Sequence record: OK272472.1
Direction: 5' to 3' (one strand)
Source of the DNA: Escherichia phage JLBYU28
DNA: 64,000 bases
The position numbers and the translations under genes are program-made. Below are positions 7,936-26,003 of this stretch, piece by piece (the first letter of the stretch is position 1; each line of letters starts with the position of its first letter). Under the pieces are notes generated by a model. The model had not been told where the DNA came from. It saw only the letters and a program-made list of their open reading frames with translations, and did not search any database.

Positions 7936-8721
7936 TTAGTTCTTTGCGTCTAAGAAGGTAACTTCCGGTGAAGAGAAGACCGTCTCGATATCCTCATCAG
8001 TTCTTGCATAGATATATGTATCTGCATCACTGCCAAATGTTACGGCTATCCTGTGATTGCTCTTCGACAGGTGGGTAACTAGAGCGTTACTCAGAGACAT
8101 CTTCTCAACCGGAGGGTTACTTTGATGTATCTTACCTTTTCTTCGTCTGAAGAGGGTAACTGTATCATCTGTGAACACAACTACACCTGCAAAGTATTCT
8201 GGTTCACAGTAGTTCTTCCAACCTGAGCGTAACTTGTGGTACATCTCTCCTTCATAGACATACAGATACACATCTACACTCTTCATCACCTGATTGATGA
8301 TAACTGTGACGGCTTGAGGGTCCAACCCACCAATACCTGCACCAATCATAGGTAACCCAACTTTCTTCAACTGATTGACTTCACAGTATCTGTTAAGCTG
8401 TTTCAAAGATGATTCTAAAGCACTGTATCGGGCATCTTTACCAGTCTTAAGCTGAGTGTAAAGATTAGCTATACGGCCTTGTTCTAAACGTGCTACAGAG
8501 AAATTGCCTAGTAAATTCTCACAGGGTTTGTGGCCTATACCACCTGCATACAGATAAACTTCTGTATCGGTCTCATATGCTTTTGGGTAAAGTTTAGAAA
8601 TCTTGTCAGCGATACCTGCACCCATTAAATTCATACAGTTGCAACCGTGACCAATAATATCAAACTTACCTTTATCAAATGCGGAGAAGATACCCCCATT
8701 GATGATTTTTACAATACCCAT
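7936..8721 (-). CDS. macro-domain protein (TARG1/Poa1-like ADP-ribose-processing domain) with C-terminal domain of unknown function
   Basis: N-terminal motifs IIGHGCNCMNLMGAGIA and PMIGAGIGGLDP match the macro-domain glycine-rich ADP-ribose binding loops. Confidence 0.6.
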   Translation of the reverse strand: MGIVKIINGGIFSAFDKGKFDIIGHGCNCMNLMGAGIADKISKLYPKAYETDTEVYLYAGGIGHKPCENLLGNFSVARLEQGRIANLYTQLKTGKDARYSALESSLKQLNRYCEVNQLKKVGLPMIGAGIGGLDPQAVTVIINQVMKSVDVYLYVYEGEMYHKLRSGWKNYCEPEYFAGVVVFTDDTVTLFRRRKGKIHQSNPPVEKMSLSNALVTHLSKSNHRIAVTFGSDADTYIYARTDEDIETVFSSPEVTFLDAKN

Positions 8722-10274: not shown

Positions 10275-11087
10275 TTATTCTTGACTGTAATAGTTGACAA
10301 GTGAAATCGCTTGATTCATCAACAACTTATCAGCCTGTGCTCCGCGACCAGCTTGTAATGCCAGTTGGTATACCTCTGTAACATATTTGTTAGACATACC
10401 TTCACAGTAGTCATTATAGTCTTCCCAAAAGGAAAATGCAGCATCACCATATAGGCGTAGTGTAATTAACATTGCTGCACGAATCCCAGAAGAATATTTT
10501 CGTTTTGCGTTTACTACACCTTTAAGCTGTACTTCAAGAGAATCAATTTGTTCCAGCTCATTTTTAAAGTCATTAAGATATTTAACTGTTTCAGTGTTAG
10601 AGACCTGTTGTACACCGTAGTATGCAGCAACATATTTAATAGCAGTTGCCCAAGATGCTTTCATCAGTTCTGACTCTGGGTTGAAAGAAATCATCTTCAT
10701 ATTCCCGTAATAAACTTCTGAAGGTTTTTCTCTTGCTAACTCAGAGTCAAAATGAGTGTACAAATCTGTGACATCCAATATAGAATTCACATGGTATATA
10801 ACTGCAATCAAGTTCTCTGGTCGTGTCAGATTACCAACTTTCCATGCCTCTCGACGTGAGTGCCCATCAATGATGAACAGTGAACTGCCAAACTTAGCTA
10901 CATGGACTACTGTTTGGTCTGGTGATACGTCACCATTAAGGTGTTTGCTTTTCAGACGCTTAAGTGTATTTCGTTGACGAGGGTTTTCTTTGTAACGTTT
11001 TTCATTAAGAAAATCCTCGACACTGATAATCTTAGTGTGAATTTTAACAACCTTGCCATTCAGTGCTACATTGATGCTGTTTGCCAT
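10275..11087 (-). CDS. ParB-like nuclease-domain protein
   Basis: Motif FIIDGHSRREAW resembles the ParB/Srx-fold GxxR box. Confidence 0.45.
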   Translation of the reverse strand: MANSINVALNGKVVKIHTKIISVEDFLNEKRYKENPRQRNTLKRLKSKHLNGDVSPDQTVVHVAKFGSSLFIIDGHSRREAWKVGNLTRPENLIAVIYHVNSILDVTDLYTHFDSELAREKPSEVYYGNMKMISFNPESELMKASWATAIKYVAAYYGVQQVSNTETVKYLNDFKNELEQIDSLEVQLKGVVNAKRKYSSGIRAAMLITLRLYGDAAFSFWEDYNDYCEGMSNKYVTEVYQLALQAGRGAQADKLLMNQAISLVNYYSQE

Positions 11088-11098
11088 AACTTGATACC

Positions 11099-11983
11099 TT
11101 AGTTGTGAATAATTACTTCGTTAATATCTTTGCTTCTCTGTGCATGTATTGTGTATGAATGACTAACCTCTGTCAAGTTAAAATTTTCAGGAATTAGGTT
11201 TGCCCATCCATCCCACTGAGAGTTTGACATCAAAACTTTAGAGCCTAACTCCCCCCAAGAAATCATATCTTCACATAATTTTACAGACATCTCAATGTCA
11301 AACTTTGCACCATATTTCTGGTTGGTATTGATATACGGGGGGTCACAGTAAATAACTGTGCCTTCTCCATGTTTTATGTCAACCCTGTTATAAGGTTCAC
11401 TGCTAAGTATTACCCTTTCATCGGTGATAAAACTGTAGAACTCAGACAGTGACTCCTTAGTTTTTGTGAAGAAAATCTCTTCTTCCAGCAAATACCCGCA
11501 AGGTGTTGCATAGTGACCTTTCATCTCTTTAGTAGTCTGCCATACACCACCAAAACTTAGTTTTTGAAGGAAAAACTGTCTGGCATAGTACCTGTAGTCA
11601 TATGCTCCTTCTTCACCAAGCAAAAGAAGTTCCTCTCTTACACTGTAATACATCTTATAGCGTAGACGGTTATGACGCTGGCCTTTCACGGCATACTCTT
11701 CCTGCATAGGTAAGGCTAAGTACCTCTTTGACAAGTACTCAAATTCTTCCATGAAGTTTTCATAGTCATCTCTGAAAGTTGTGTAAAGACCTATAATATG
11801 TTTATTTATCTCATTAATAAACACTTTTGCCTCTGGGTATCTGTTATAAGCCCAGATAGCTACTGAACCACCACCTGAAAACAGGTCATAGAAGTTTGTA
11901 CAGTTGTCTGGAAAGACACCTAAACGCTCATACTCTTTTAATATTCTTGTTTTACCACCAAGATATTTGAACATCGGCTTCAT
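11099..11983 (-). CDS. dam: DNA N6-adenine methyltransferase (Dam-like)
   Basis: Motif I FKYLGGK...DLFSGGGS and catalytic DPPY (IYCDPPYINT). Confidence 0.8.
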   Translation of the reverse strand: MKPMFKYLGGKTRILKEYERLGVFPDNCTNFYDLFSGGGSVAIWAYNRYPEAKVFINEINKHIIGLYTTFRDDYENFMEEFEYLSKRYLALPMQEEYAVKGQRHNRLRYKMYYSVREELLLLGEEGAYDYRYYARQFFLQKLSFGGVWQTTKEMKGHYATPCGYLLEEEIFFTKTKESLSEFYSFITDERVILSSEPYNRVDIKHGEGTVIYCDPPYINTNQKYGAKFDIEMSVKLCEDMISWGELGSKVLMSNSQWDGWANLIPENFNLTEVSHSYTIHAQRSKDINEVIIHN

Positions 11984-15020: not shown

Positions 15021-17387
15021 TTAATCGTAAATTGTAGTCCCTTCTGGAACACACTTCACATCAAAGCCTAAGAACTTACTCACTTCGATGGGTGACACTT
15101 TATTCCAATCTAAATGAGAAAGCAAGAAGTTTTCTTGTTTTCTTTTTGAAAGGTAGTTTGTCACCTTGATGACCATACGGTCACCAGCTTTCTTAATTTT
15201 CTTGTACAGCTTTGTATCATTATCAAGACATCTTTTTAAATCTTGCAACACACTAATAGTGTAAGTGTATGCAAAAGGTGCAGCAACGTATTGGATTTTA
15301 CCAAACATTGCCTCTACAGCATCTTCATTACCTTCTAAGAAGATAGTTTTGTTTGTATCCCGCGAATAACAATAGCCACGAGAAATCTTCCTGTTATTGA
15401 ACGTAAAGTTTCTGGCAATAATCCAACTGCTTGTAAGGTCGAGGACACCATTCATATAGATACGTGTCATATACCTGTTATGATTAATCCAATGAACATC
15501 AGTTAAGCTGTCGTTCAAGAGTTTCTCATCTACTTCAATCCAGTCTTCTGGTATCTTTTTCCAATTTGCTTTTCGGAAAACATAGACTGTCTTACCTGTA
15601 ACATTAGCAACTGACTTAGCTACATCTTCTGGAGATGAGCAAAAACATTCACCATCAACTGTGTCACCGACTGCCTTAATATAAAGCTGAGGCTCTTCAA
15701 TCGTATCTAAGTCTTCTGACACATCTATGTATGAAGCTACACCTTCTGCTGGAACAGCTTTCCAAAGTTTTACAACACCTCTTACAGCTTCTTTACGCTG
15801 ATAATGGTGTTCCTTATCAGACATTTTCACAATCTTTAACAAGCTTTTATCAAGTTTGTGCAGATTGATTAAGTCATCTAGCTCTTCCTCATTAGAGAAT
15901 ACAAAGACGATACCATTGTATCTGTGAAACAGACTTGACTCGCTGGCATAGTCTCGACATGCACCACGCAGAATCTGATTGCGTCCTACAGTCTTCTCAG
16001 TTCCGTTTTTATTGCGACGGTCATTAATCACGAACAAAAACTGTTCAATTTGGCTTTTACGCATTGCACCAAAGATATTGAACATACTTGCCTCTTGAGT
16101 GTAGGAAAGTGCTGTTGCACGAATCTTACTCTCTAAAGAGTTGAACTTAACATAAGCAACTGGATTGTATAGGTAATCTACTTTAGGGATATTATTCCCG
16201 TTCCTATCAACCTTAATATTACCTTTGCCGTCACGTTCATAGATGACTGAGCCGTCTTCTGCGTAGATAATCCCACGACGAATGTTTAGTAATTCTTCTT
16301 CCAGAGAATCAAGCTTAACGCCTCCCCACTCTAGCTTTGGACACACAGCATTAAACATTTCTCGTGAGTTCAAACGTAACTCAGCATAAGCCTGTGCAGC
16401 ATCCATGAGTGTAGGTTGGCTATTAACTTTCTTGATAACATCTTTTGTAATTGCTTCAGTTATCTTTTTAGTAGCCTCGATGATAACATTTTTTGTCGTG
16501 TCATTCATCTGCAATGCTTCACGAGAAGCTGCAATAGCAACTGAACCAATAGGCATGTAGATGTTTACAAGGTCTACGCTCCTACGGAAAAATTCTGGCA
16601 AGACTTTGAAGAAATCATCACCAAGTAATGCTTCCATGTTAACTGGATAGGCAATATTACCCATCACCACATTAAATTCTGTCCTGTTACTACTAGAGCG
16701 CCAGCTTTGCTTATGAATCATGGCATCATAAACACCTTCTTCACGGGCAATGACGTTCATATCTGCTAATACATCGTCATACTCGATATTGCTTTCTGGT
16801 TTTACAGCAAAGTATGAATATACGTGACCCGCTTCTTCAAAGAACTTTGAGATACGGTGGTCAGCAACTGCTACACGTACAGCTAAACCATTAGGCTCTT
16901 TTGTTGGGTTAGTGGTAAGCTTAGTTACTTGAGGGATACCATTCTCAAGATAAACAGAGTACTTATTAACAACACCGTCAACATAGCTAGACACTGTGAA
17001 TGACTGAGCAATTGCAAATGGAGATTTTGAGCCGATACCCATTGCACCAATGTAGTCATTAGAGTCATTCTTCGTAGAAGCCCCGTAGTTCAGATACAAA
17101 CTCATAACTTTATCATGAGTCAGTCCAGTTCCAAAATCACGAACTTCGAAGTAAGGCTCAAAACGAGTAGGTAAATGCACATGGAATGGGATGTTCTCTT
17201 TTCCAGCTTCTTTCTGAGCATCTACTGCGTTACATGACAGTTCACGAATCACTGCTCGCTCTTTAAACGTGTATACACCAGAACTCAAAAGGCTGAACAT
17301 TTCAGGTGTCATTGTAATCTGTGCTTGAGATGTCTCTAAAGAAGTTGAACTCTTAATCACTTCTGCGTGGTCATTTACCATGCGCAT
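15021..17387 (-). CDS. rIIA: rIIA-like protein with GHKL/histidine-kinase-like ATPase domain
   Basis: N box IRELSCNAVDA, G1 box RDFGTGL, G2 box GAMGIGSKSPF; ~790 aa. Confidence 0.7.
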   Translation of the reverse strand: MRMVNDHAEVIKSSTSLETSQAQITMTPEMFSLLSSGVYTFKERAVIRELSCNAVDAQKEAGKENIPFHVHLPTRFEPYFEVRDFGTGLTHDKVMSLYLNYGASTKNDSNDYIGAMGIGSKSPFAIAQSFTVSSYVDGVVNKYSVYLENGIPQVTKLTTNPTKEPNGLAVRVAVADHRISKFFEEAGHVYSYFAVKPESNIEYDDVLADMNVIAREEGVYDAMIHKQSWRSSSNRTEFNVVMGNIAYPVNMEALLGDDFFKVLPEFFRRSVDLVNIYMPIGSVAIAASREALQMNDTTKNVIIEATKKITEAITKDVIKKVNSQPTLMDAAQAYAELRLNSREMFNAVCPKLEWGGVKLDSLEEELLNIRRGIIYAEDGSVIYERDGKGNIKVDRNGNNIPKVDYLYNPVAYVKFNSLESKIRATALSYTQEASMFNIFGAMRKSQIEQFLFVINDRRNKNGTEKTVGRNQILRGACRDYASESSLFHRYNGIVFVFSNEEELDDLINLHKLDKSLLKIVKMSDKEHHYQRKEAVRGVVKLWKAVPAEGVASYIDVSEDLDTIEEPQLYIKAVGDTVDGECFCSSPEDVAKSVANVTGKTVYVFRKANWKKIPEDWIEVDEKLLNDSLTDVHWINHNRYMTRIYMNGVLDLTSSWIIARNFTFNNRKISRGYCYSRDTNKTIFLEGNEDAVEAMFGKIQYVAAPFAYTYTISVLQDLKRCLDNDTKLYKKIKKAGDRMVIKVTNYLSKRKQENFLLSHLDWNKVSPIEVSKFLGFDVKCVPEGTTIYD

Positions 17388-17415
17388 AATACTTTCCTCT
17401 TAGTTTACTGTTAAA

Positions 17416-17592
17416 TTACTTATTAAACATTTTACCAGAACCACCACAAATAGGGCAACAACCTGCTCTTGTATACCCTTCTCCGTTACAGTAGTCACAC
17501 TTTTTGTGTTCTGCAAAGTACTTACAAAGAAGGCAAACAAATATTGCTACACTACCAAGTGACAGTAAAATTTCTATCCAATATGCTTGCAT
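17416..17592 (-). CDS. small membrane protein with zinc-ribbon-like CxxC...CxxC (58 aa; below track threshold)
   Basis: Hand translation MQAYWIEILLSLGSVAIFVCLLCKYFAEHKKCDYCNGEGYTRAGCCPICGGSGKMFNK. Confidence 0.4.
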   Translation of the reverse strand: MQAYWIEILLSLGSVAIFVCLLCKYFAEHKKCDYCNGEGYTRAGCCPICGGSGKMFNK

Positions 17593-17909
17593 GACTCACC
17601 TCTCATATTTTTGTAAAGGATAAAACTTCTGTCATGGACGATACTTGTAGATACTGCAAAGTTACTTTCAAGCATCTGTTTGTTTGGATTGTAGAAGCCT
17701 TCTTTAAACTCGTCAAGTGCAAATTGGTGATTGTCTGGAAGACCTTTTACACAAACCTTTATTGTGATTGCTGCTGCAATCTTGCCAGTCAGTTCTTCTT
17801 TAGCTGCTACTAAAATTTTGTTAAGGAACTTTTTACCATCTTCAGGTTTCTTAATGTTCTCCCAACGTTCTTCTAAGACAATGTTGATGTTCATCTCTTT
17901 GATTTTCAT
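17574..17909 (-). CDS. hypothetical protein (111 aa)
   Basis: ORF in track. Confidence 0.5.
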   Translation of the reverse strand: MKIKEMNINIVLEERWENIKKPEDGKKFLNKILVAAKEELTGKIAAAITIKVCVKGLPDNHQFALDEFKEGFYNPNKQMLESNFAVSTSIVHDRSFILYKNMRGESCKHIG

Positions 17910-17919
17910 AGTCTTCTCC

Positions 17920-17950
17920 AGAAATTAAAAAGGCTCCCGTAGGAGCCTCT
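17920..17950 (-). terminator. rho-independent terminator (GGCTCC-TACG-GGAGCC + U-run) downstream of Nampt-like gene
   Basis: Hairpin 17932-17947 followed by TTTTTAATTT on minus strand. Confidence 0.7.
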
Positions 17951-17962
17951 TATCATATACTT

Positions 17963-19744
17963 TTAAAGCTGCTTGTCAATATTATTTCGAATATCACCAA
18001 GAGTTGTGTAACCGTACTGCTCAGAGTCACTAAAGACTAAACGTAAAGCACAAGCTGGATGTTCAAGTGCATCTGCAAAGCTCTGGAATCCATAGCCATC
18101 TACAGCTTTCAACTTATCACCATCCCACATAGGTGCTACACCACCAAAAGCAGACTTCTTAACACCACTATCTGTTTTAGGGTCTTTTGCAAGCATAATC
18201 TCTTTACCACCAATGCTTGCAAGAGTTGCTTTAACAGCAAATGCAAAGGTGTCACGAGTCATGTACTGGTAAGTGTAAGAGCCTACGCCAAACACTACGT
18301 TAGAGCTTGCAAAACCCATTTCATACAGACGCTTCAGGATTTCGTTTGCACGTTCCAGCGTGATAGAGTCGCCATAGATAAGTCCGATATGCTCATCCAG
18401 TACCTTAAACCCTTTAGAGTTGATAGTTCCTCCAAAGATGTTATACAAAGTCTTAATAGCCCCATCAATCTCTGCTACAGGACGTGTTACAACGTTTGCA
18501 GAACCAACCATATAAGCATTTTTCAACATCACTGTATCAGCAACTTCAAAGTCTTCTCTGTCAACAACCATTTCGTAGCCTTCTGACAGTAGCCATCCAG
18601 CAATACCATAATTGATGTTTTCAAGCTTCATGTTCAGAACAGAGTTTAGCATTGTATCACTAGCTTCCAGCTTGCTAAGATGTTCATAATAAGCCTTCTT
18701 AGCACATTCTAAGTGGATTGCTTTATAACCTGTGACAATATGTACAGGGTCTCCAGAGTCAGGACGAATTACCAGTTTACCGTCACGTCCCATAATCTCT
18801 TTACGAAGTGCTGGTAAGATTTCTGACACAGTTCTCCAGAAGTTATAAGTGTCTGAGACAACACTTGCAATACCAGTTGGGTAAGTTTCTGTTAAGAAGC
18901 GACGGAAGGTTTGTAATTCACCTTTAAAGCGTCTTTCTTCTTCAATCAACTCATTACCACCTTCCAAAGCAATGTTTGCACACATTACAGAGTGTTCAGT
19001 GGCTGGTACAGAACCACCAATATCAGAGACTGGGTAAGACTGTCCGTAGATGCGTTTAGCTGTATATACAGCAGGGAAGCTATCAGTCCCTTTAAAGCTG
19101 GTTAAGTGGCCTACAGCGTTAAATGCGTCATCAGTAAAGCCGGACATACCACGCATAGCAAAGTCATGGCACTGATAAGGTAAATGTAAGTCATTGTCGC
19201 AAGTAAGGTCAGCCCACTTCTTACAGATACGTTTGTAGTGCAATGCAATAGTTGCGATGGTACAAGCCTTCCAAATCTCAGCAGAGAAAGCATCTTCCAG
19301 ATACCCTGCTACCCAATGGAAACCTGAAACAGTGTTCTGGAAGACAAGCATTGGTACACGCATAGGAACAACTGTGCCTTCTTCTACAGCGTATACTTCG
19401 ACTGGCAGATAACCTAAGTCATGAAGTGCTTCCCAATGCTCTCGACCAATAGCATCTTTGCCCAGAACACCGTTCATGACTTCTAAGATTTCGTCAATTG
19501 CTTCTTTTTTGTCACGTTCAAAGAAAGTGGCGTTCCAATGGTCTATCAAGTAATCTTTAACGAAACGTTGAATACCAAAAGCCACTACACCGTCAATTGC
19601 CAAAGGGCTGTTAAACCATTTATCACTACGTGGTGTCAGGTTCAACATAAGATATTGCGTAGCATCTGGATACTGATATATATGTGATGCCTTGTAAGCA
19701 TCTGCATTAAGACCTGCTGGTACTGCATAAAGTGATTTAGTCAT
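17963..19744 (-). CDS. nadV: nicotinamide phosphoribosyltransferase family protein (NadV/Nampt-like; possibly Namat of an NAD+ reconstitution pathway)
   Basis: Recalled Nampt-family blocks: DAYKASHIYQYP, EVYAVEEGTVVP, CHDFAMRG...FKGTDS, VVSDTYNF, RPDSGDP. Confidence 0.85.
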   Translation of the reverse strand: MTKSLYAVPAGLNADAYKASHIYQYPDATQYLMLNLTPRSDKWFNSPLAIDGVVAFGIQRFVKDYLIDHWNATFFERDKKEAIDEILEVMNGVLGKDAIGREHWEALHDLGYLPVEVYAVEEGTVVPMRVPMLVFQNTVSGFHWVAGYLEDAFSAEIWKACTIATIALHYKRICKKWADLTCDNDLHLPYQCHDFAMRGMSGFTDDAFNAVGHLTSFKGTDSFPAVYTAKRIYGQSYPVSDIGGSVPATEHSVMCANIALEGGNELIEEERRFKGELQTFRRFLTETYPTGIASVVSDTYNFWRTVSEILPALRKEIMGRDGKLVIRPDSGDPVHIVTGYKAIHLECAKKAYYEHLSKLEASDTMLNSVLNMKLENINYGIAGWLLSEGYEMVVDREDFEVADTVMLKNAYMVGSANVVTRPVAEIDGAIKTLYNIFGGTINSKGFKVLDEHIGLIYGDSITLERANEILKRLYEMGFASSNVVFGVGSYTYQYMTRDTFAFAVKATLASIGGKEIMLAKDPKTDSGVKKSAFGGVAPMWDGDKLKAVDGYGFQSFADALEHPACALRLVFSDSEQYGYTTLGDIRNNIDKQL

Positions 19745-19789
19745 CTTTTAATCTCTCTCAAAATGGGGCTTTTAAGCCCCTATAAACTT

Positions 19790-20686
19790 TCAATTAAGGT
19801 TTGCTACAGTAACTTGACTATGATGTGTTAAGCTACGGTCTTTAGCTTCTCCTAAAGAGTTTGTAGTGTAGATATGGTCAATACCATTGTCAAGTAAGTT
19901 TTCAACACCTTTAGAGAAAATACCATGAGTTACATATAGTTCCACACGTTTTGCACCTGCTTCACGAAGATGTTTCGCTGCTTCTATGAAGGTTCGACCA
20001 CCATCACAGATATCATCCAGAATCATGACAGTTTTATCTGTCAAATCAACATCATCAAGGATTCGCATACCAGTGATTTCACCAGTTTTGAGGTTGCGTA
20101 CTTTAGACATTGTGATGTATGGTTTATCTACCTCTTTAGCAGTCTCTGCAATCTTCTTAGAAGCACCTGCATCTGGAGCTACTAAGTAATCAATCAGTGG
20201 GTCATTTGCATAGTGGACTGCAATTTCCTTTTGAGGAATACTCTGGAAGCAGTTAAAAAGGTTATCTGGAACGTAACTGTGAGGGTCAACTGCACAGACT
20301 GCGCCAAATCCCAATGCATTAACCTGTTTAGCAAAAACCTTCAAAGCTGCTGCATCACCTTTAAACATGTGACGGTCATATCGTGCATTCGGTAAGTAGT
20401 AAAAGATGACAGTCTTTAAGGCATAATCATGAGGAATCAAATCATCAATTACCTCTTTAGCAAGTGCCACAGCAAACAGTGTGTCTTTGTCATAACCCTT
20501 TACAATCATAACCACATTGTTAATAGATGATGCTGCATAAGCAGTAAAATCAACAAACTCTGGCGAAAAGTGTCCACCAATCTCACCAGAAGGAAATTGG
20601 ATGATGTTAAACTCTTCTTCATGAGTTCCTTTAGTTGGTGAATGAATTGTAACACGGATAGATGTTTTCATAGTCTTCTCTCTCAA
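19790..20686 (-). CDS. prs: ribose-phosphate pyrophosphokinase family protein (Prs-like; possibly ADPR-pyrophosphate synthetase Adps)
   Basis: Prs blocks VAPDAGASKK, ILDDICDGGRT (PRPP-binding loop), VTHGIFS, IYTTNSL. Confidence 0.8.
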   Translation of the reverse strand: MREKTMKTSIRVTIHSPTKGTHEEEFNIIQFPSGEIGGHFSPEFVDFTAYAASSINNVVMIVKGYDKDTLFAVALAKEVIDDLIPHDYALKTVIFYYLPNARYDRHMFKGDAAALKVFAKQVNALGFGAVCAVDPHSYVPDNLFNCFQSIPQKEIAVHYANDPLIDYLVAPDAGASKKIAETAKEVDKPYITMSKVRNLKTGEITGMRILDDVDLTDKTVMILDDICDGGRTFIEAAKHLREAGAKRVELYVTHGIFSKGVENLLDNGIDHIYTTNSLGEAKDRSLTHHSQVTVANLN

Positions 20687-20797
20687 TCAAAAGTTACGTT
20701 TGTTACTGACATTGCAGCAGAACGTTTCAGGTTTGACAGATACATTTTATCTCCAAAATAAAAAGGGAACCTTTACAGCTCCCCCTATAGTATCTGT

Positions 20798-21118
20798 TTA
20801 CTGAGCTACTTTCAAGATGCTTGTGAATGAAATCTCACTCTCATCCATAGACTCTTTTGCTTCCCCAGTAACTTTTACAAAGTTATCTAGGCAGATAATC
20901 TTCTTATCTTTCTTGCTGTAAGTTAGCTTAACCTTTTCAATATCTTTCTTAGAGCTTTTCTCTTCATTAAAGAGCTTTACAGCTTCTTTGAATGGGAGGT
21001 ATGAGCCATCATCATCACTAATAAAGCCTGTGCCACAATAGTAGAGGTTGTATTCTTTAGCCATAAACTGGCACAGTACGAAAATCTGTAATTTGCGAGT
21101 GTTATAAACTTTGCTCAT
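20798..21118 (-). CDS. hypothetical protein (106 aa)
   Basis: ORF in track. Confidence 0.45.
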   Translation of the reverse strand: MSKVYNTRKLQIFVLCQFMAKEYNLYYCGTGFISDDDGSYLPFKEAVKLFNEEKSSKKDIEKVKLTYSKKDKKIICLDNFVKVTGEAKESMDESEISFTSILKVAQ

Positions 21119-21120
21119 GA

Positions 21121-21390
21121 TTATTTACCCTTCTTATTGCGTTTACGGTTACGGTTACGGTTACGAGCTTTCTTAGCTGCTCGTTTAATAGCTGCTGCAC
21201 CAGTTGGCCGATGTGCTTGTTTTTTACCACCTTTACCACGGCCTACATAGATACTTTTCATAATCTCATTAGCCAGCTTCTCATCCATCTTGAAGTTCTG
21301 CATAAGGTGAGTCACATCAACACCAGTGAGCATACCTAATGAAGCTAGTGCTGCTTTTACTTTTGATTTAAAACTATTCCAGAGTCCCAT
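21121..21390 (-). CDS. hypothetical protein with extremely basic C-terminal tail (RNRNRNRKRNKKGK)
   Basis: ORF in track; composition suggests nucleic-acid binding. Confidence 0.45.
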   Translation of the reverse strand: MGLWNSFKSKVKAALASLGMLTGVDVTHLMQNFKMDEKLANEIMKSIYVGRGKGGKKQAHRPTGAAAIKRAAKKARNRNRNRKRNKKGK

Positions 21391-21514
21391 TTCATATCTC
21401 TCTCAATCTTTTCACAAAATGTTTTAAGTTCTTTTCAGTGACACAAACGGTTAAGTTTGTTCTGTAGAACATTGTAAAGTGCCCCTTTACCGATAACCCA
21501 CTTTACGACGAGAC

Positions 21515-22000
21515 TTACTCGGCTCTCCATTGACAATCGCCTTGCCACCCATACTCTTTTCTCCAGAGGTTTTGGTTATCAGAACCACGATATGGTTTAA
21601 CTGTTGGTTTAGATGAATCATACTTACCATCAATCACCACGTCAACATATTTCATCACATCTAGGTGAATTTTTTCGTGTAACTGAAAACCTGTCCAGAG
21701 CCAGATAGATTTCTCTGGGTAAACAGTTTTAATACGTTTACATATGTCTGTAACCTCTTGAATATTTCTATCATCCAGAGGTTCTCCACCAAGTATTGAC
21801 AAACCACTGACAGCATTATCACCCATTAGCTGGATGATTCCGTAGAGGTTTGCATAAGTAAATACCTTACCAGCATTAAACTTCCAAGACTCCCTGTTAA
21901 AGCAGCCTTCACAGTGATGCTTACAACCAGCTACGAAGAGGCTTACACGAACCCCTTCACCATTAGCTGTGTCAAATGGTCGAATCTCCATGTAATTCAT
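21515..22000 (-). CDS. nrdG: anaerobic ribonucleotide reductase activating protein (radical SAM)
   Basis: CxxxCxxC motif (CKHHCEGC) near N-terminus; adjacent to nrdD. Confidence 0.8.
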   Translation of the reverse strand: MNYMEIRPFDTANGEGVRVSLFVAGCKHHCEGCFNRESWKFNAGKVFTYANLYGIIQLMGDNAVSGLSILGGEPLDDRNIQEVTDICKRIKTVYPEKSIWLWTGFQLHEKIHLDVMKYVDVVIDGKYDSSKPTVKPYRGSDNQNLWRKEYGWQGDCQWRAE

Positions 22001-22009
22001 CTAGTTACC

Positions 22010-22309
22010 TCACCAATACATATAAGTGTTCTTAGCGGCTTTCTTTGGAGACTTGCTATCAATGTCAAAGTCTTCATCTAAGAAGGATGTCTTAGAAAGC
22101 TGCCTGATTTGTGTTCTTGTAAGACGTTTAGTAGCCTTCTTAATCTCCCTACAAGGTTGACTTGTAAAGTCATAAGAGCCACCTTTTCTGGACATCATAT
22201 CAGAGTGGTAGTAGACCTCTGAAGCATTTTCTCTGTTACGTACCTCATTCCTCCACTCATAGAGTCCGTGAACGTTCTTTAAACCTTTTCTTCGAATTGT
22301 TTTACTCAT
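22010..22309 (-). CDS. hypothetical protein (99 aa)
   Basis: ORF in track. Confidence 0.45.
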   Translation of the reverse strand: MSKTIRRKGLKNVHGLYEWRNEVRNRENASEVYYHSDMMSRKGGSYDFTSQPCREIKKATKRLTRTQIRQLSKTSFLDEDFDIDSKSPKKAAKNTYMYW

Positions 22310-22701
22310 TCAAACACCACCTGACAAGGAACCTGTTTAATAATAAATTCTTCACAGTGCTCTTTAATGAAGTTTTGTAATGGTACACAATCTTGTGCGC
22401 AAGTCATTAGCATAATGTACTCTGGATTCATGATGTTTTCAAGGGTGTAGAAGACAACATCGTCAGATAGTTCATGACCGTCTTCTTCAGACCAAGTTCC
22501 AGTGACTACAGCTAATTTGTCAAGCAATTCATTAGGCAATGCTACACCATCTTCTACAGAATCACTTAGAACGTTATCACTGACATACAGTGTGAAGGTC
22601 ATATGAAATATTGAGTATCTTACGTGATTCTTTTCGCAAGAGCCACACTCTGAGGCGTAATCTTTAATCCACTCTAACTGTTTTTGGTTCAACTTAATCA
22701 T
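22306..22701 (-). CDS. hypothetical Cys-containing protein (131 aa)
   Basis: ORF in track. Confidence 0.45.
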   Translation of the reverse strand: MIKLNQKQLEWIKDYASECGSCEKNHVRYSIFHMTFTLYVSDNVLSDSVEDGVALPNELLDKLAVVTGTWSEEDGHELSDDVVFYTLENIMNPEYIMLMTCAQDCVPLQNFIKEHCEEFIIKQVPCQVVFE

Positions 22702-22898
22702 AACCTCACCTTAGTTGGTAATGCACTGAATGCTATAGCTAACCCTAAAAATGGTTTGAAGCATGACCATAAATCCATCTGACCGTGGTATGAGAAACCC
22801 CATTGTGGGTCAGAAAAGCCCCATACCATAACACTAACTCCAAAGAAGAAGACTAGTGTTCGGAGCATTGGTATCAATGCTTTTGGTATTTTAAACAT
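22698..22898 (-). CDS. small membrane protein (66 aa)
   Basis: Two hydrophobic segments. Confidence 0.4.
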   Translation of the reverse strand: MFKIPKALIPMLRTLVFFFGVSVMVWGFSDPQWGFSYHGQMDLWSCFKPFLGLAIAFSALPTKVRL

Positions 22899-23052
22899 TT
22901 TAACTTATCTCTCAATTCACAATAAGAGAGTTCTAAAAAGAACCCTAGTAAGACAGAGCCTATGAGCAACCCAATAATACTCTCTGCCATATATAACATC
23001 CAATAAAAAAGGTGATATAAGCCTATCAAGACCCACATCACCTTGTCAAGTT

Positions 23053-24021
23053 TTACATAGAGACTCTATCACGAATCTCAGCGATTTTTGCATCGTTCAT
23101 TCGGGATTCACCTTTAATCTTAGTCCATCCAAGATACCCACACACCCTGTTAATCACAGAGATATCATATGAATGGCAAACCTCACACTCTTCCACATCA
23201 GCCTTTGGTCTGTTACCACAATGTTCACAGATTGCTAAGTCAAAGTTAAGTCCTTGATAGAAACCTTTCAACATACCTCTCGTAATACAACTCTTAAGTG
23301 CTGATAAGTTTTCTGGGTTAGCTACTCTTACATACTGGATTCTACCACCTCTACAGATATGGAAGAATGGCTCTTCTAAGTCCTGCTTCTCAAATGGTGA
23401 GATGTCTGCTGCAACATTCATATGGAAACTGTTTGTAAAGTATTCCTTGTCAGAGACACCTTTAATAACGCCAAACATATCTCTGAACTGTTTTAACTGA
23501 GTTCCACAAAGTGATTCTGCTGGAGTGCCATATACCGCATACAAGAAGCCATCTTCGTTCTTAAACTCTTCAGTTTTCATGTTGATGTATTCTAGAACAT
23601 CGTATGCAAAACTACAGCTTCCAACTTCATGAAGTCGTTTACCTTCAGCAAGAACAGATAGCTCATCAAGCGCAGTAACCCCAAAAGAAGCTGTGAAGGA
23701 CTTCACGATATCCCAACCAACCCTGTCAGTAGGTTTCTTATTCCCTTTGTACAGACCACCTTGTGTAAATGCAAGAGGGTTAGAACTTGCTGGCATATTA
23801 GCAATCATTTCGTAACGTTTCTTGTGGAAGCTGCGAATCATTTCTAAGTACTTATCAAGCTCTTTCCAGAAATCTAAGCCATTCTCTTTAGAATACTGGT
23901 AAATCATTGGTAAGTTCAAAGATACAGCACCAATGTTAGCACGACCTACATAAAACTCTTCACCATTCTCGTTATGATATGGTGATAAGAACGCTCTACA
24001 CTTGTTGTTCAGGTAAGTTCG
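23053..24021 (-). CDS. nrdD: anaerobic ribonucleoside-triphosphate reductase NrdD, 3' exon
   Basis: Glycyl-radical motif RVCGYLG and zinc ribbon CEHCG...CEVC; reading frame open upstream of the track start as far as an in-frame TAG at 24022-24024. Confidence 0.8.
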   Translation of the reverse strand, partial: RTYLNNKCRAFLSPYHNENGEEFYVGRANIGAVSLNLPMIYQYSKENGLDFWKELDKYLEMIRSFHKKRYEMIANMPASSNPLAFTQGGLYKGNKKPTDRVGWDIVKSFTASFGVTALDELSVLAEGKRLHEVGSCSFAYDVLEYINMKTEEFKNEDGFLYAVYGTPAESLCGTQLKQFRDMFGVIKGVSDKEYFTNSFHMNVAADISPFEKQDLEEPFFHICRGGRIQYVRVANPENLSALKSCITRGMLKGFYQGLNFDLAICEHCGNRPKADVEECEVCHSYDISVINRVCGYLGWTKIKGESRMNDAKIAEIRDRVSM

Positions 24022-24313
24022 CTAAGCTTACCCCGCTTTATTCAAGCTGCTTACTGTCGCCAGTAAGTCCAGACTATATCTTCTACTTATTTCTAAGTAG
24101 CGTACCATTTCGAGTCGCTTGACCCTACACCGCTACATTCATCACGGTTAGTCGTTCGGCATTTAGATGTATTCAAACTCATATTCGAAGTTATTTGGCA
24201 TGTAAGACTCCTATGTTGTATAGTTTCTTACATCATACACCATTTAGCACAGGATTGTCTACATCTGTAGAGTTTCCCTGTTTAGGCACGTTTTAGATGA
24301 GCTATAGAGCTTG
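24022..24313 (-). other. putative group I intron interrupting nrdD (5' boundary not resolved)
   Basis: Non-coding gap inside a single gene; minus-strand GACUA (in aacgactaacc) and UAGUC (in atatagtctgg) candidates for P7, followed by stem-loops and a terminal G. Confidence 0.55.
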
Positions 24314-25513
24314 TTAACCCATCGGTGAAATTACCTTACCAGAACGCTCAAAAGCCTCTGCTACAGCACCATGACCAGATACACTTAAGAAGTCTGGATA
24401 CATTGCTTTAGAGCAACACTCAATGGCTTTACTGTACAGGTGACCTTGACAAATATTCTCATCATGTCTCTTCTGGTCATAGATATAAACCAGTTTAGGA
24501 AATACAACCGGTTTTTTGCTCTTACCTTGTCCGTTCATACGAACATCTAGGAGAGTACTTGCAATCATATATTGCAGTCGGTTATCTTCATTAGACATAT
24601 CTGAGTCAAGTAACCCGAATGTCAAAGTTGTAAATGCAAAATCCCCACGGCTACAAGGTACGGTATTTAGTTTCATCTCAAGTGACTGAAAACCTTGAGT
24701 CAGTTCAATTTGTAACTGCTCCATTACATAGTTATGGTAATGTTCTTTAGGAATACCGTAAGATGCTGCTTTCTCAGCATGATAGCGTAGAGACTTCTTA
24801 GCATACGGTACAAGCACCTTATCAATCTCTGCTAAAGTAAATCCACCAAATTGCTGTGCAGTTGCTGAAAGAACTACATCACCAATAACCTGTAAGGCTG
24901 ACAGCACAGACTTCGGTTCACAGTATTCAATGCCAGACATTTCAAAGCCACCTTTCAGTACTTTACCGATGTCAAACAGGCAACAGTTGATACCACCAAA
25001 AATTAGGTCTCTTAAGTCATGGATGTAGATAAACCCTTTTTCAATGGCTTCGAGTTCCTCTGGTGTTAAATGGTATTGTTTAAAGATTTCTTTAGTCAGA
25101 TAGCCACGAATAATTGAACCTTTTGTAGAAATTAAACTGCTGTCAAAGTTAGCATTTTCACGGTCACCTAAGAAGAGTGTATCCTTAGTCTTCTGGTAAA
25201 GTTCATCCCAATTTTGAGCAACCTCTTTACGGTAATTTCTATACGTTGAGTAAGACTCATAAATCTCGTGATTGACTTCTGCCAAAGCACCCTCAACAAT
25301 ACTGTGAATATCATTTACTGAAACGAGTAAATTATTCTGCTTAGTAGATTTTACCAGAATCCTCATAAATGCTGACTCAAGAGCTTGAGTAACATCTGGT
25401 GGAAGCTCTTTATAACCAACTCTGTTAGCTGACTTTGTGACTGCTGCTAAAACTTTTTTGATATCAGGTTCTTCGAGTGAGCCATTCTTTTTAATAATCT
25501 GTACTTTGTTCAT
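24314..25513 (-). CDS. nrdD: anaerobic ribonucleoside-triphosphate reductase NrdD, 5' exon (ORF as seen; true splice donor lies upstream of the in-frame stop)
   Basis: N-terminal ATP-cone-like region; same protein as the downstream exon. Confidence 0.75.
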   Translation of the reverse strand: MNKVQIIKKNGSLEEPDIKKVLAAVTKSANRVGYKELPPDVTQALESAFMRILVKSTKQNNLLVSVNDIHSIVEGALAEVNHEIYESYSTYRNYRKEVAQNWDELYQKTKDTLFLGDRENANFDSSLISTKGSIIRGYLTKEIFKQYHLTPEELEAIEKGFIYIHDLRDLIFGGINCCLFDIGKVLKGGFEMSGIEYCEPKSVLSALQVIGDVVLSATAQQFGGFTLAEIDKVLVPYAKKSLRYHAEKAASYGIPKEHYHNYVMEQLQIELTQGFQSLEMKLNTVPCSRGDFAFTTLTFGLLDSDMSNEDNRLQYMIASTLLDVRMNGQGKSKKPVVFPKLVYIYDQKRHDENICQGHLYSKAIECCSKAMYPDFLSVSGHGAVAEAFERSGKVISPMG

Positions 25514-25534
25514 TATTGCCCCTTTACATGCTAA

Positions 25535-25556
25535 AAAGGTCTCCGAAGAGACCCTT
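25535..25556 (-). terminator. terminator/attenuator hairpin upstream of nrdD
   Basis: Minus-strand GGGTCTC-TTCG-GAGACCT followed by TTTTT; lies ~20 nt before the nrdD ATG. Confidence 0.5.
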
Positions 25557-25561
25557 TCATT

Positions 25562-25768
25562 TTAAATCTTTTTAGAAAACTTCGCAAAGAGTTCTCTTAG
25601 CTTTTCAGTGATACCAAGATGTATCTCTAGGATTTCAAATATAACCCATAGTAACATGACTCCAAACAACAAACCTTGTTCAAAGTCAGTAAATAGGTTA
25701 ACAACAAGCATACCAATTACAATAGCTGGTGCATCAATAACCAAACCTTCCCAAAGGCGTTTAAGCAT
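25562..25768 (-). CDS. small membrane protein (68 aa)
   Basis: Hydrophobic segments. Confidence 0.45.
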   Translation of the reverse strand: MLKRLWEGLVIDAPAIVIGMLVVNLFTDFEQGLLFGVMLLWVIFEILEIHLGITEKLRELFAKFSKKI

Positions 25769-26003
25769 TATTCACCTCTGCCATAAAATTCTGTAGCGTA
25801 CCAACAGGTTTTAGGTTTTGTCCATCAGTTTTCATGATGAATGGCATCTGACGAACTGGCATCTGTGCAATGTCCATTAGTTCCGATAGCTCATAGTCCT
25901 GCCCTAACATTCTCACAACATGGTCAATACCACGAGCTTTTGCAAAATTCTTTGCAGTCTCACACTGAGGACATCCAGTTTTGGAGTAAATTACATAAGT
26001 CAT
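25761..26003 (-). CDS. glutaredoxin-like protein (NrdH/Grx type)
   Basis: CPQC active site in first 15 residues; ~80 aa; next to nrd genes. Confidence 0.75.
   Translation of the reverse strand: MTYVIYSKTGCPQCETAKNFAKARGIDHVVRMLGQDYELSELMDIAQMPVRQMPFIMKTDGQNLKPVGTLQNFMAEVNNA

Follow-up and report, generated by a model that had tools for sequence, protein, structure and literature searches.

Two adjacent genes in the window (the whole stretch of DNA analysed here, 64,000 nucleotides) very probably form the standard two-gene NARP1 counter-defence module of Felixounavirus, with chemistry and phenotype assigned by homology. The first is predicted to encode an ADPR-pyrophosphate synthetase of the Prs family (Adps) and the second a nicotinamide ADPR transferase of the Nampt family (Namat). 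This NARP1 identity is already known rather than new. An earlier note on the same DNA had preferred Adps plus Namat to Prs plus Nampt, and comparison with Bas63 supports that choice: the Namat proteins are identical at 573 of 593 positions (97%, bas63_0080) and the Adps proteins at 223 of 293 (76%, bas63_0079), both ungapped, and the selectivity clamp of Namat is present.

NARP1 was found by deleting genes 79–80 of Bas63 (JohannRWettstein), a Felixounavirus. The deletion left the phage sensitive to SIR2-HerA, and ADPR-PP was seen only when wild-type phage and the defence system were present together (bioRxiv 10.1101/2024.02.11.579819). Restoration of NAD+ and rescue from NADase defence (SIR2-HerA, DSR, Thoeris I or SEFIR) have been demonstrated for the Bas63 and SPbetaL1 modules. 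Because Bas63 Adps could not be purified, the in vitro reactions used the SPbetaL1 enzymes; SPbetaL1 Adps converts ADPR and ATP to ADPR-PP and makes no PRPP in vitro, and the same step in Bas63 was deduced from metabolomics. Namat lies nearby in 97% of Adps-clade genes, and adps followed by namat is the defining layout. A literature search found no paper naming NARP1 and Felixounavirus together; the link between them is drawn from the taxonomy record of Bas63.

For the window pair, the sequence shows protein identity, signature motifs and gene order, whereas its NAD+-rebuilding chemistry and anti-defence phenotype are predicted by homology, from in vivo work on Bas63 and in vitro work on SPbetaL1. 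The two genes would be transcribed together, adps first. A host NADase effector of the SIR2, TIR or SEFIR type would split NAD+ into ADP-ribose and nicotinamide, Adps would transfer a pyrophosphate group from ATP to the terminal ribose of ADPR, giving ADPR-PP, and Namat would swap the pyrophosphate of ADPR-PP for nicotinamide, yielding NAD+ directly. Host NMN-to-NAD+ salvage (NadR or PncC) would be dispensable for this rebuilding. Such assignments are relevant to predicting which therapeutic or typing phages beat Thoeris I, DSR, SIR2-HerA and SEFIR. Conceptually the pair offers nothing new; the only leads beyond the literature are the window-type Adps allele and a distant Adpp-like Macro-domain gene.

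The Felixounavirus locus

The window is Felixounavirus DNA: its nucleotide sequence is 95% identical to those of wV8 and the REP8–12 phages. Escherichia phage JLBYU28 encodes identical proteins, and its copies of the pair are annotated as putative Prs and Nampt. Both genes lie on the minus strand, co-directional and adjacent as the earlier note described, with adps upstream and a 45-nt spacer between them (Table 1). The 298-aa Prs-like protein given in that note corresponds to a longest-ORF call (19790..20686), which does run from a TTG; the gene itself starts elsewhere, almost certainly at the ATG at 20671 (293 aa), because GAGAGAGAAG precedes this ATG and the 882-nt annotation agrees in Bas63, wV8 and 35FD. 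The TTG at 20686 merely delimits the longest possible Prs-like ORF. The motifs by which the two proteins had been recognised, VAPDAGASKK and ILDDICDGGRT together with DAYKASHIYQYP, CHDFAMRG and RPDSGDP, all occur in the translations.

Table 1. Coordinates of the adps–namat pair and associated features in the window
Feature	Position	Strand	Remarks
adps	19790..20671	-	ADPR-pyrophosphate synthetase, Prs-family, 293 aa; function by homology
namat	17963..19744	-	nicotinamide ADPR transferase, Nampt-family, 593 aa; function by homology
G+C-rich hairpin in the 45-nt adps–namat spacer	19765..19780	-	GGGGCU-UAAA-AGCCCC, then AUUUUG and the namat ribosome-binding site
Intrinsic-terminator-like hairpin 3' of namat	17928..17951	-	GAGGCUCC-UACG-GGAGCCUUUUU; 10 pairs, T-rich tail
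Terminator-like hairpin after the upstream DUF7390 gene	20762..20786	-	90 nt before adps; terminator scan and folding
Putative remnant ORF, 20 codons	20683..20745	-	stop overlaps the TTG just 5' of adps
Macro-domain protein gene	7936..8721	-	261 aa; ~9 kb downstream of the pair; 98% identical to bas63_0095 'putative phosphatase'

Gene order, spacer hairpin and protein lengths (293 and 593 aa) are the same in Bas63 NARP1 (bas63_0079/bas63_0080; Osterman et al. 2024). The Namat clamp loop and clamp helix motif are also identical, and Adps is nearly identical over its C-terminal third. The two loci differ in the N-terminal 180 residues of Adps, which are of another allele, and in their immediate surroundings: three small ORFs that adjoin the Bas63 pair, bas63_0077 and bas63_0078 on the upstream side and bas63_0081 on the downstream side, are missing from the window.

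Both RNA structures mentioned in the earlier note, a hairpin between the genes and a terminator after them, were recovered, the latter as a terminator-like site that folds at -17.6 kcal/mol. The 56-nt intergenic RNA has a fold energy of -12.6 kcal/mol (z = -3.1), and its stem is invariant in four Felixounaviruses (window, Bas63, wV8 and 35FD), among which one loop base alone varies. The terminator scan made no call at the spacer hairpin, which may be a partial terminator or an RNA-stability element. An Rfam search for riboswitches and other RNA elements (positions 17000–26000, E ≤ 0.01) gave just a group I intron in nrdD, and a scan for sigma-70-type promoters returned 16 sites against 10.5 expected, with nothing convincing directly 5' of adps.

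Sequence determinants of Adps and Namat

Pfam and PHROGs matches far beyond chance bear out the family assignments made earlier from the letters. The Prs-like protein matches PF00156 and PF14572 (44.4 and 38.2 bits, both exceeding the gathering cut-offs) and phrog_619 (E = 1e-96); the Nampt-like protein matches PF04095 (E = 1e-33), PF18127 and phrog_448 (E = 2.5e-201). In the comparison proposed in the note, the Prs-like protein is closer to characterised Adps than to E. coli Prs, and the Nampt-like protein carries Namat features that canonical Nampts lack. Folds and catalytic motifs, including the PRPP-binding loop, the catalytic Lys and His, and RPDSGD, are nevertheless common to the window enzymes and to cellular Prs (E. 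coli b1207) and Nampt (human and Xanthomonas). Compared with E. coli Prs, window Adps lacks the C-terminal Prs helix and carries the loop DDICDGGRT instead of DDMIDTGGT.

Window Adps shares 35–51% identity with other phage and bacterial Adps-type proteins, 30–32% with SPbetaL1 Adps and 22–25% with E. coli Prs. It barely passes TIGR01251, a broad subfamily model (118.7 bits against a cut-off of 113), on which SPbetaL1 Adps scores 106 and E. coli Prs 422.7 bits; it reaches none of the Prs equivalog cut-offs, the best being NF002095 at 101 bits against 296. By these pairwise identities and TIGR01251 scores, the protein groups with the phage Adps clade and not with cellular Prs. Bas63 Adps was itself one of the queries that defined this clade. 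In an alignment of 20 sequences (19 Adps-type proteins and E. coli Prs), window Adps keeps all 19 invariant columns, among them K190 and R192. K190, within MSKVRN, occupies the position of K162 in SPbetaL1 Adps and of K194 in E. coli Prs, and is the equivalent of B. subtilis Prs K197 and Gary K192; mutation of K162 abolishes the activity of SPbetaL1 Adps. A PDB search found canonical Prs only (best 4twb, E = 9e-19) and no solved Adps structure, and a literature search found no paper giving residue rules that split ADPR from ribose-5-phosphate binding in Adps. Clade membership, genomic context and conserved catalytic motifs are therefore the basis for assigning the protein as Adps.

Published determinants are available for the other enzyme, and the residue check suggested in the note found them in window Namat, in both the clamp helix and the clamp loop. 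Among solved structures, its best sequence matches are 9w5w and 9w5x, both of SPbetaL1 Namat (E = 4e-128). The conserved catalytic residues D15, Y17, F195, R198 and D221 correspond to SPbetaL1 D13, Y15, F189, R192 and D215, H251 corresponds to the catalytic His, and R327 and D329 to R306 and D308. The selectivity clamp of Namat has been defined structurally (Lan et al. 2026). In its loop between beta1 and beta2, position 3 is Arg, Lys or Tyr, and where it is Lys or Tyr, position 4 is a stacking residue. The window loop S40-D41-K42-W43, identical to that of Bas63, fills positions 3 and 4 with K42 and W43, and the clamp helix motif GSYTYQYMTRD lies at residues 488–498 with Y490 and Y494. This adenine-stacking K-W loop has no counterpart in the canonical Nampts compared (Xanthomonas and KVP40-like). 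At the clamp helix, Xanthomonas Nampt reads GMGGALLQKVDRD and lacks the adenine clamp, while a KVP40-like Schizotequatrovirus phage Nampt reads GMGGGLLQQLDRD and has a shorter loop than the window protein; both carry GMGG(A/G)LLQ..DRD in place of the Namat motif. Of the cellular Nampts, the human enzyme likewise has no adenine clamp.

The SPbetaL1 module of a Bacillus phage (Namat crystals 9w5w and 9w5x; Lan et al. 2026) has the two-gene layout in common with the window, and the Adps lysine (K162/K190), the Namat catalytic core and GSxTYQYxTRD are conserved between them. It differs in overall identity (30–32% for Adps, 48% for Namat) and in using a stacking Arg in the clamp loop where the window has K-W. 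Relative to the SPbetaL1 protein, window Namat also contains an insert of ~80 aa (roughly residues 345–427) and a smaller one near residues 264–278.

NARP2 of Vibrio phage KVP40 (Nampt plus Nmnat) likewise combines a Nampt-family enzyme with the purpose of restoring NAD+ under NADase defence. However, its Nampt acts on PRPP in the canonical way and an Nmnat is required, whereas the window has Adps instead. NARP2 Nampt lacks the aromatic clamp motif, and the KVP40-like relative mentioned above is 31% identical to window Namat. The window pair departs from NARP2 both in its clamp and in its adjacent Adps; in the 45-kb Bas63 stretch spanning the NARP1 region, no Nmnat is annotated.

A distant Macro-domain gene

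Outside the pair, the phage encodes a Macro-domain protein (PF01661, E = 1e-7) that, judging from its sequence, might serve in trans as an ADPR-1''-phosphate phosphatase (Adpp-like); it is a candidate, and its membership of the module is putative. The relevant known system is NARP1-AP, the Adps-Adpp-Namat operon of Vibrio phage Gary (Osterman et al. 2026 preprint). The window has the core Adps and Namat of this operon, and its phage too encodes a Poa1p-like Macro-domain protein. The arrangement differs in that the Macro gene lies outside the operon, 9.2 kb and more than 10 genes downstream, and encodes an extra, uncharacterised C-terminal domain of ~95 aa. ADPR-1''-phosphate is the product of aRES-type RES NAD+ phosphorylases. 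We conjecture, as an extension and not a replacement of the NARP1 reading, that the phage may run a dispersed NARP1-AP in which the Macro protein would turn ADPR-1''-phosphate into ADPR for Adps, and that it would also resist aRES despite a phosphatase gene 9 kb from the operon. This is a tentative proposal that we consider possible but on the whole unlikely.

In full-length alignments, the Macro protein shares 27% identity with the characterised Gary Adpp (E = 1e-12) and 34% with a Macro protein that phage PN09 encodes within its NARP1 (E = 2e-17). The aRES study mutated H24 of Gary Adpp, and the window protein has H25 at the aligned position. The Macro protein and Adpp have NxYxQ and GxPxIGxGxGG motifs in common. 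Q90 of the Macro protein occupies the position aligned with the TKK segment of TARG1, in which we take the catalytic lysine of TARG1 and DarG to lie. An AF2 model (pLDDT 92) matches the Poa1p, TARG1 and DarG macrodomains, with an rmsd of 2.6–2.8 to Poa1p. The fold matches include 6lfs, an entry for the Poa1p H23A mutant, which suggests that the residue equivalent to H25 matters in Poa1p too, the equivalence itself being a candidate. The Macro gene lies on the same strand and in the same gene block as the NARP1 pair, an arrangement that distant Ounavirinae-like contigs retain. Because the aRES study scanned no farther than two genes from NARP1 on each side, it would have missed the Macro gene.

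Several observations pull the other way. The Macro family is present in ~2,840 phage records, some of them from T4-like phages without NARP1, and is therefore not NARP1-specific. Foldseek ranks the TARG1 and DarG macrodomains slightly above Poa1p, and because the scores of TARG1, DarG, Poa1p and viral macrodomains all lie within a roughly tenfold range, fold alone does not settle the subtype; it is the motif comparison (H25 and Q90) that favours a Poa1p/Adpp type. The C-terminal domain has no known role, and the accessible part of the aRES study's text reports no Felixounavirus tested against aRES. The broader claim, that Felixounaviruses including the window phage run a dispersed NARP1-AP whose reach extends to RES NAD+ phosphorylases, is more doubtful still. 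If the Macro gene is functional, surveys limited to operon neighbours would undercount NARP1-AP, and if a dispersed NARP1-AP exists, the published survey would not have counted Felixounavirus as NARP1-AP.

Closer to the pair, searches for Macro domains (PF01661, PF14519 and PF20016, E ≤ 1) gave no match in the two nearest ORFs on each side or in two further upstream. The RyR domain PF02026 (RyDEP) had no match in the ORFs flanking the pair, and neither Macro nor RyR domains were found in the Bas63-specific neighbours 77, 78 and 81. Among adjacent ORFs, the domains found were limited to DUF7390, with a weak sub-threshold DUF5499 match farther upstream. Two motifs from published aRad1-like aRES inhibitors had no matches in the six-frame translation.

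Adps alleles, older annotation and the upstream indel

Felixounavirus Adps falls into two discrete allele classes with a deeply diverged N-terminal part. At an identity of 90% or more to window Adps there are ~154 phage records, and a second group of ~94 lies near 76%, with almost none between. The window allele is of the other class than the Bas63 allele tested in vivo; the proteins are 53–83% identical over codons 1–180. At the nucleotide level, identity to Bas63 adps is 56–84% in the 5' 540 nt (56–66% in the first 270 nt), then mostly 89–92%, with 85% in the final 70 nt. Recent positive selection was considered as the source of this difference and rejected: 56–66% identity in the first 270 nt means that synonymous sites are saturated, and the break coincides with the indel, which is in keeping with mosaic recombination.

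The two classes might also differ in function, although this is a weaker possibility than a dispersed NARP1-AP. The window-type Adps would then perform NARP1 chemistry with another substrate range, regulation or partner specificity than that of Bas63, and both alleles would persist in the genus through host counter-pressure. The discreteness of the classes, and divergence limited to the 5' 540 nt while the adjoining Namat is 97% identical, speak for such a difference. We nonetheless regard it as improbable. Both alleles keep every invariant column (NARYDRH, DPHS, PDAGA, the K-x-R loop and DDICDGGRT are examples), and the window sequence also agrees at the listed near-invariant positions. Moreover, ~40% nucleotide divergence points to old mosaic recombination and not to recent adaptive change, as does the coincidence of the upstream break with the gene 77/78 indel.

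Least probable is the pre-2024 view, still GenBank's annotation, that a true PRPP synthetase and a true Nampt make NMN from ribose-5-phosphate and nicotinamide, with host NadR or PncC finishing NAD+, so that the pair merely boosts pyridine-nucleotide salvage: it draws on the names in Pfam, PHROGs and NCBIfam and on the putative Prs and Nampt labels of the identical JLBYU28 proteins, but Bas63 overcame SIR2-HerA even in a host lacking pncC and nadR (bioRxiv 10.1101/2024.02.11.579819), SPbetaL1 Adps gave no measurable product in a Prs-activity assay while making ADPR-PP from ADPR and ATP, Namat keeps PRPP-to-NMN activity in vitro yet yields NAD+ as sole product when offered PRPP and ADPR-PP together, and the window proteins combine an adenine-binding clamp that canonical Nampts lack with a Prs-like partner that is remote from E. 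coli Prs and below every equivalog cut-off. On the preferred NARP1 reading, the labels 'ribose-phosphate pyrophosphokinase' and 'nicotinamide phosphoribosyltransferase', which sit on the exact JLBYU28 proteins and on hundreds of Felixounavirus records, are outdated and should be Adps and Namat (NARP1).

The indel upstream of adps can be placed by blastn, which joins window positions 20705/20717 to positions 21989/22701 of Bas63 L007 with a 13-nt overlap. The 20-codon ORF at this junction is probably the scar of a 712-bp deletion that took out the homologues of bas63_0077 and bas63_0078.

Layout and identity of the gene pair

The best-supported reading of the adjacent adps and namat genes is a standard NARP1 locus, the published two-enzyme pathway that re-forms NAD+ out of ADPR plus nicotinamide. 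As the earlier note had described, the two genes are adjacent and co-directional, and every peptide block that it quoted occurs in their translations. The Prs-like gene, adps (ADPR-pyrophosphate synthetase), encodes PF00156 and PF14572, while the Nampt-like gene, namat (nicotinamide ADPR transferase), encodes PF04095 and PF18127; both proteins match PHROGs families (E 1e-96 and 2.5e-201, respectively). The 298-aa Prs-like ORF of the earlier note exists when counted from a TTG, but translation most likely starts with the ATG at 20671, which yields a 293-aa protein. This ATG follows a GAGAGAGAAG ribosome-binding site and agrees with the 882-nt gene annotated in phages Bas63, wV8, and vB_Si_35FD. 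The hairpin that the earlier note had described between the genes is likewise present, and a terminator-like hairpin follows them. The folding energy of the intergenic RNA is -12.6 kcal/mol (z = -3.1), and the hairpin stem is invariant in four Felixounaviruses, with a single variable loop base.

Coordinates of features in the NARP1 region and elsewhere in the window
Feature	Position	Strand	Remarks
Prs-like ORF (adps)	19790..20686	minus	298 aa counted from TTG
Nampt-like ORF (namat)	17963..19744	minus	593 aa
Spacer hairpin	19780..19765	minus	G+C-rich; in 45-nt adps-namat spacer, then AUUUUG
Terminator-like hairpin	17951..17928		after namat
Terminator-like hairpin	20786..20762		before adps
Putative remnant ORF	20745..20683	minus	20 codons; left by 712-bp deletion
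Macro-domain protein	7936..8721	minus	261 aa; PF01661; 9.2 kb downstream of NARP1
Namat insertion	18466-18712	minus	aa ~345-427
1.7-kb insertion	10275-11983	minus	relative to Bas63
Group I intron	24050-24400	minus	Rfam RF00028; 53.9 bits, above gathering score
nrdD ORFs	24314-25513, 23053-23919		split by the intron

Aligned with characterised and housekeeping enzymes, as the earlier note had proposed, both proteins group with the NARP1 enzymes. Namat is identical to bas63_0080, the Namat of phage Bas63 (JohannRWettstein), at 573 of 593 residues without gaps. Lan et al. solved structures of the Namat of Bacillus phage SPbetaL1 with nicotinamide and with NAD+, and described a two-part adenine-binding 'selectivity clamp' (PMC12774641). 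One part is the beta1-beta2 loop, which has Arg, Lys or Tyr at position 3; with Lys or Tyr there, stacking falls to the residue at position 4, as in Bas63 (PMC12774641). The window Namat has S40-D41-K42-W43 in this loop, carries the clamp motif as GSYTYQYMTRD (aa 488-498), and conserves the catalytic residues D15, Y17, F195, R198, D221, H251, R327, and D329. In contrast, the canonical Xanthomonas Nampt has GMGGALLQKVDRD at the clamp motif, and a KVP40-like Schizotequatrovirus phage Nampt, 31% identical overall, has GMGGGLLQQLDRD and a shorter loop. The closest solved structures by sequence, 9w5w and 9w5x (E 4e-128), are those of SPbetaL1 Namat. A third solved Nampt-family structure similar to window Namat (PDB 9ke8 and 9keo, E 3e-105) has an intermediate clamp-helix motif, GAQTYQRNTRD. 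Relative to SPbetaL1 Namat and the KVP40-like Nampt, Felixounavirus Namat contains an insertion of ∼80 aa, which to judge by the alignment seems to lie after the RPDSGDP strand and ahead of the following conserved block. Alignments to other long phage Namats are unbroken and cover at least 96% of the query.

Because searches of the PDB and the literature turned up neither a structure of Adps nor published rules on which residues bind ADPR, Adps was assessed by its clade, its catalytic motifs, and its genomic surroundings. The protein shares 76% identity with bas63_0079, the Bas63 Adps (223/293, no gaps), 35-51% with further Adps-type proteins from phages and bacteria, 30-32% with SPbetaL1 Adps, and just 22-25% with E. 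coli Prs. It keeps all 19 columns that are invariant among 19 Adps-type proteins and E. coli Prs; one of these holds K190, the counterpart of SPbetaL1 K162 and E. coli K194. Against the broad NCBIfam model TIGR01251 (cut-off 113) it scores 118.7 bits, compared with 106 for SPbetaL1 Adps and 422.7 for E. coli Prs, and it approaches no NCBIfam Prs equivalog cut-off. Megabase-scale Enterobacteriaceae contigs (Superficieibacter, Cronobacter, Pluralibacter) also encode Adps-type proteins, 37-49% identical to that of the window, in agreement with a published report of bacterial NARP1 homologues.

Chemistry and role of the pair

By homology, Adps would pyrophosphorylate ADPR freed by host NADases to ADPR-PP, and Namat would join ADPR-PP to nicotinamide, regenerating NAD+. 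The pair would thereby counter SIR2-HerA, DSR1/2, type I Thoeris, and SEFIR. NARP1 was discovered by deleting genes 79-80 of Bas63, a BASEL-collection phage (Osterman et al., bioRxiv 10.1101/2024.02.11.579819). Loss of these genes sensitised Bas63 to SIR2-HerA and made NAD+ depletion more severe; ADPR-PP was seen only when wild-type phage infected defence-carrying cells, and the effect was independent of host pncC and nadR (bioRxiv 10.1101/2024.02.11.579819). Because Bas63 Adps purified poorly, SPbetaL1 homologues were used in vitro; these converted ADPR and ATP to ADPR-PP, and ADPR-PP and nicotinamide to NAD+, and Adps K162A and Namat R306G abolished activity (bioRxiv 10.1101/2024.02.11.579819).

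The window Adps, Namat, and a downstream Macro-domain protein are each 100% identical to JLBYU28 proteins, labelled putative ribose-phosphate pyrophosphokinase, nicotinamide phosphoribosyltransferase, and phosphatase. The older reading of such a pair, in which PRPP is made first and NMN is formed next, is at odds with the genetics of Bas63, the biochemistry of SPbetaL1, and the clamp motifs of Namat, although Namat can still convert some PRPP to NMN in vitro. The NARP1 assignment, as proposed in the earlier note, is supported by the Bas63 identities, the Namat clamp, the Adps clade placement, and the layout. The system itself is already known, as NARP1 was first described in the same genus (Bas63 is a Felixounavirus) with a 97% identical Namat. 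What remains is an annotation correction and two modest leads: the Adps alleles relative to Bas63 and the distant Macro gene.

A distant Macro-domain gene

The nearest ORFs on either side of adps-namat contain no Macro or RyR domain, so the locus is a plain two-gene NARP1, unlike the Adps-Adpp-Namat operon NARP1-AP of Vibrio phage Gary (bioRxiv 10.64898/2026.01.28.702374) and RyDEP-containing NARP1 (bioRxiv 10.64898/2026.05.28.727677). The Macro protein 9.2 kb away is 98% identical to bas63_0095, which is also labelled 'putative phosphatase'. Along its full length, the Macro domain can be aligned with both Gary Adpp, a characterised ADPR-1''-phosphate phosphatase (27% identity, E 1e-12), and a Macro protein embedded in the NARP1 of phage PN09 (34%, E 2e-17). 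H25 aligns with Gary Adpp H24, the residue mutated in the study of aRES, a RES NAD+ phosphorylase defence, and the family-invariant NLYTQ motif places Q90 opposite the TKK segment of TARG1, which holds the catalytic lysine of TARG1 and DarG. An AlphaFold model (pLDDT 92) matches Poa1p (rmsd 2.6-2.8), and the TARG1 and DarG macrodomains with slightly better E-values. Two metagenomic contigs with the same Ounavirinae-type gene order preserve the synteny NARP1 ... rIIA-rIIB ... Macro. These residues, alignments, model, and synteny tie the protein to the Adpp type.

The aRES study scanned only two genes on each side of NARP1 (bioRxiv 10.64898/2026.01.28.702374), so a Macro gene this distant would have gone uncounted. 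It is tempting to speculate that the protein acts as Adpp for a NARP1-AP in trans. We consider this lead rather unlikely: the family occurs in ∼2,840 phage records, among them T4-like phages devoid of NARP1, and the protein has an uncharacterised extra beta-rich C-terminal domain (aa ∼170-261; no match), both of which disfavour a dedicated NARP1 role.

Differences from Bas63 and other relatives

The nucleotide identity of the region to Felixounaviruses, for example wV8 and REP8-12, is 95%, and it has matches in 257 phage records. Bas63 NARP1 has the same gene order and spacer hairpin. Divergence within adps is limited to the first 540 nt (20130-20671, minus), at 56-84% nucleotide identity; the remainder is mostly at 89-92%, with 85% over its last 70 nt, namat averages ∼94%, and most sequence flanking the divergent segment is 89-96%. 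Felixounaviruses carry two discrete Adps alleles, with ∼154 phage records at least 90% identical to the window Adps and ∼94 near 76%. The window allele is the commoner; Bas63, the tested phage, has the other. Because both alleles keep all conserved Adps motifs, we read the split as probably the result of mosaic recombination long ago and not of a functional change.

Two Bas63 genes directly upstream of adps, bas63_0077 and bas63_0078 (171 and 92 aa; no Pfam), are missing from the window, which has a clean 712-bp deletion at this place (within 20683-20761) relative to Bas63 and wV8. Upstream of adps, Salmonella phage vB_Si_35FD is equally compact, with neither of these two genes. Directly downstream of namat, bas63_0081 (345 bp, 114 aa) is likewise absent (17910-17915).

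Elsewhere, a group I intron splits nrdD (anaerobic ribonucleotide reductase). In the Bas63 annotation, nrdD consists of two pieces joined together, and an ORF for a homing endonuclease lies inside the gene span; the window gap is too short for such an ORF. The 1.7-kb insertion encodes a D12-class N6-adenine DNA methyltransferase (294 aa, PF02086) and, adjacent to it, a 270-aa protein (phrog_2615); a more distant relative has the methyltransferase at a nearby position.
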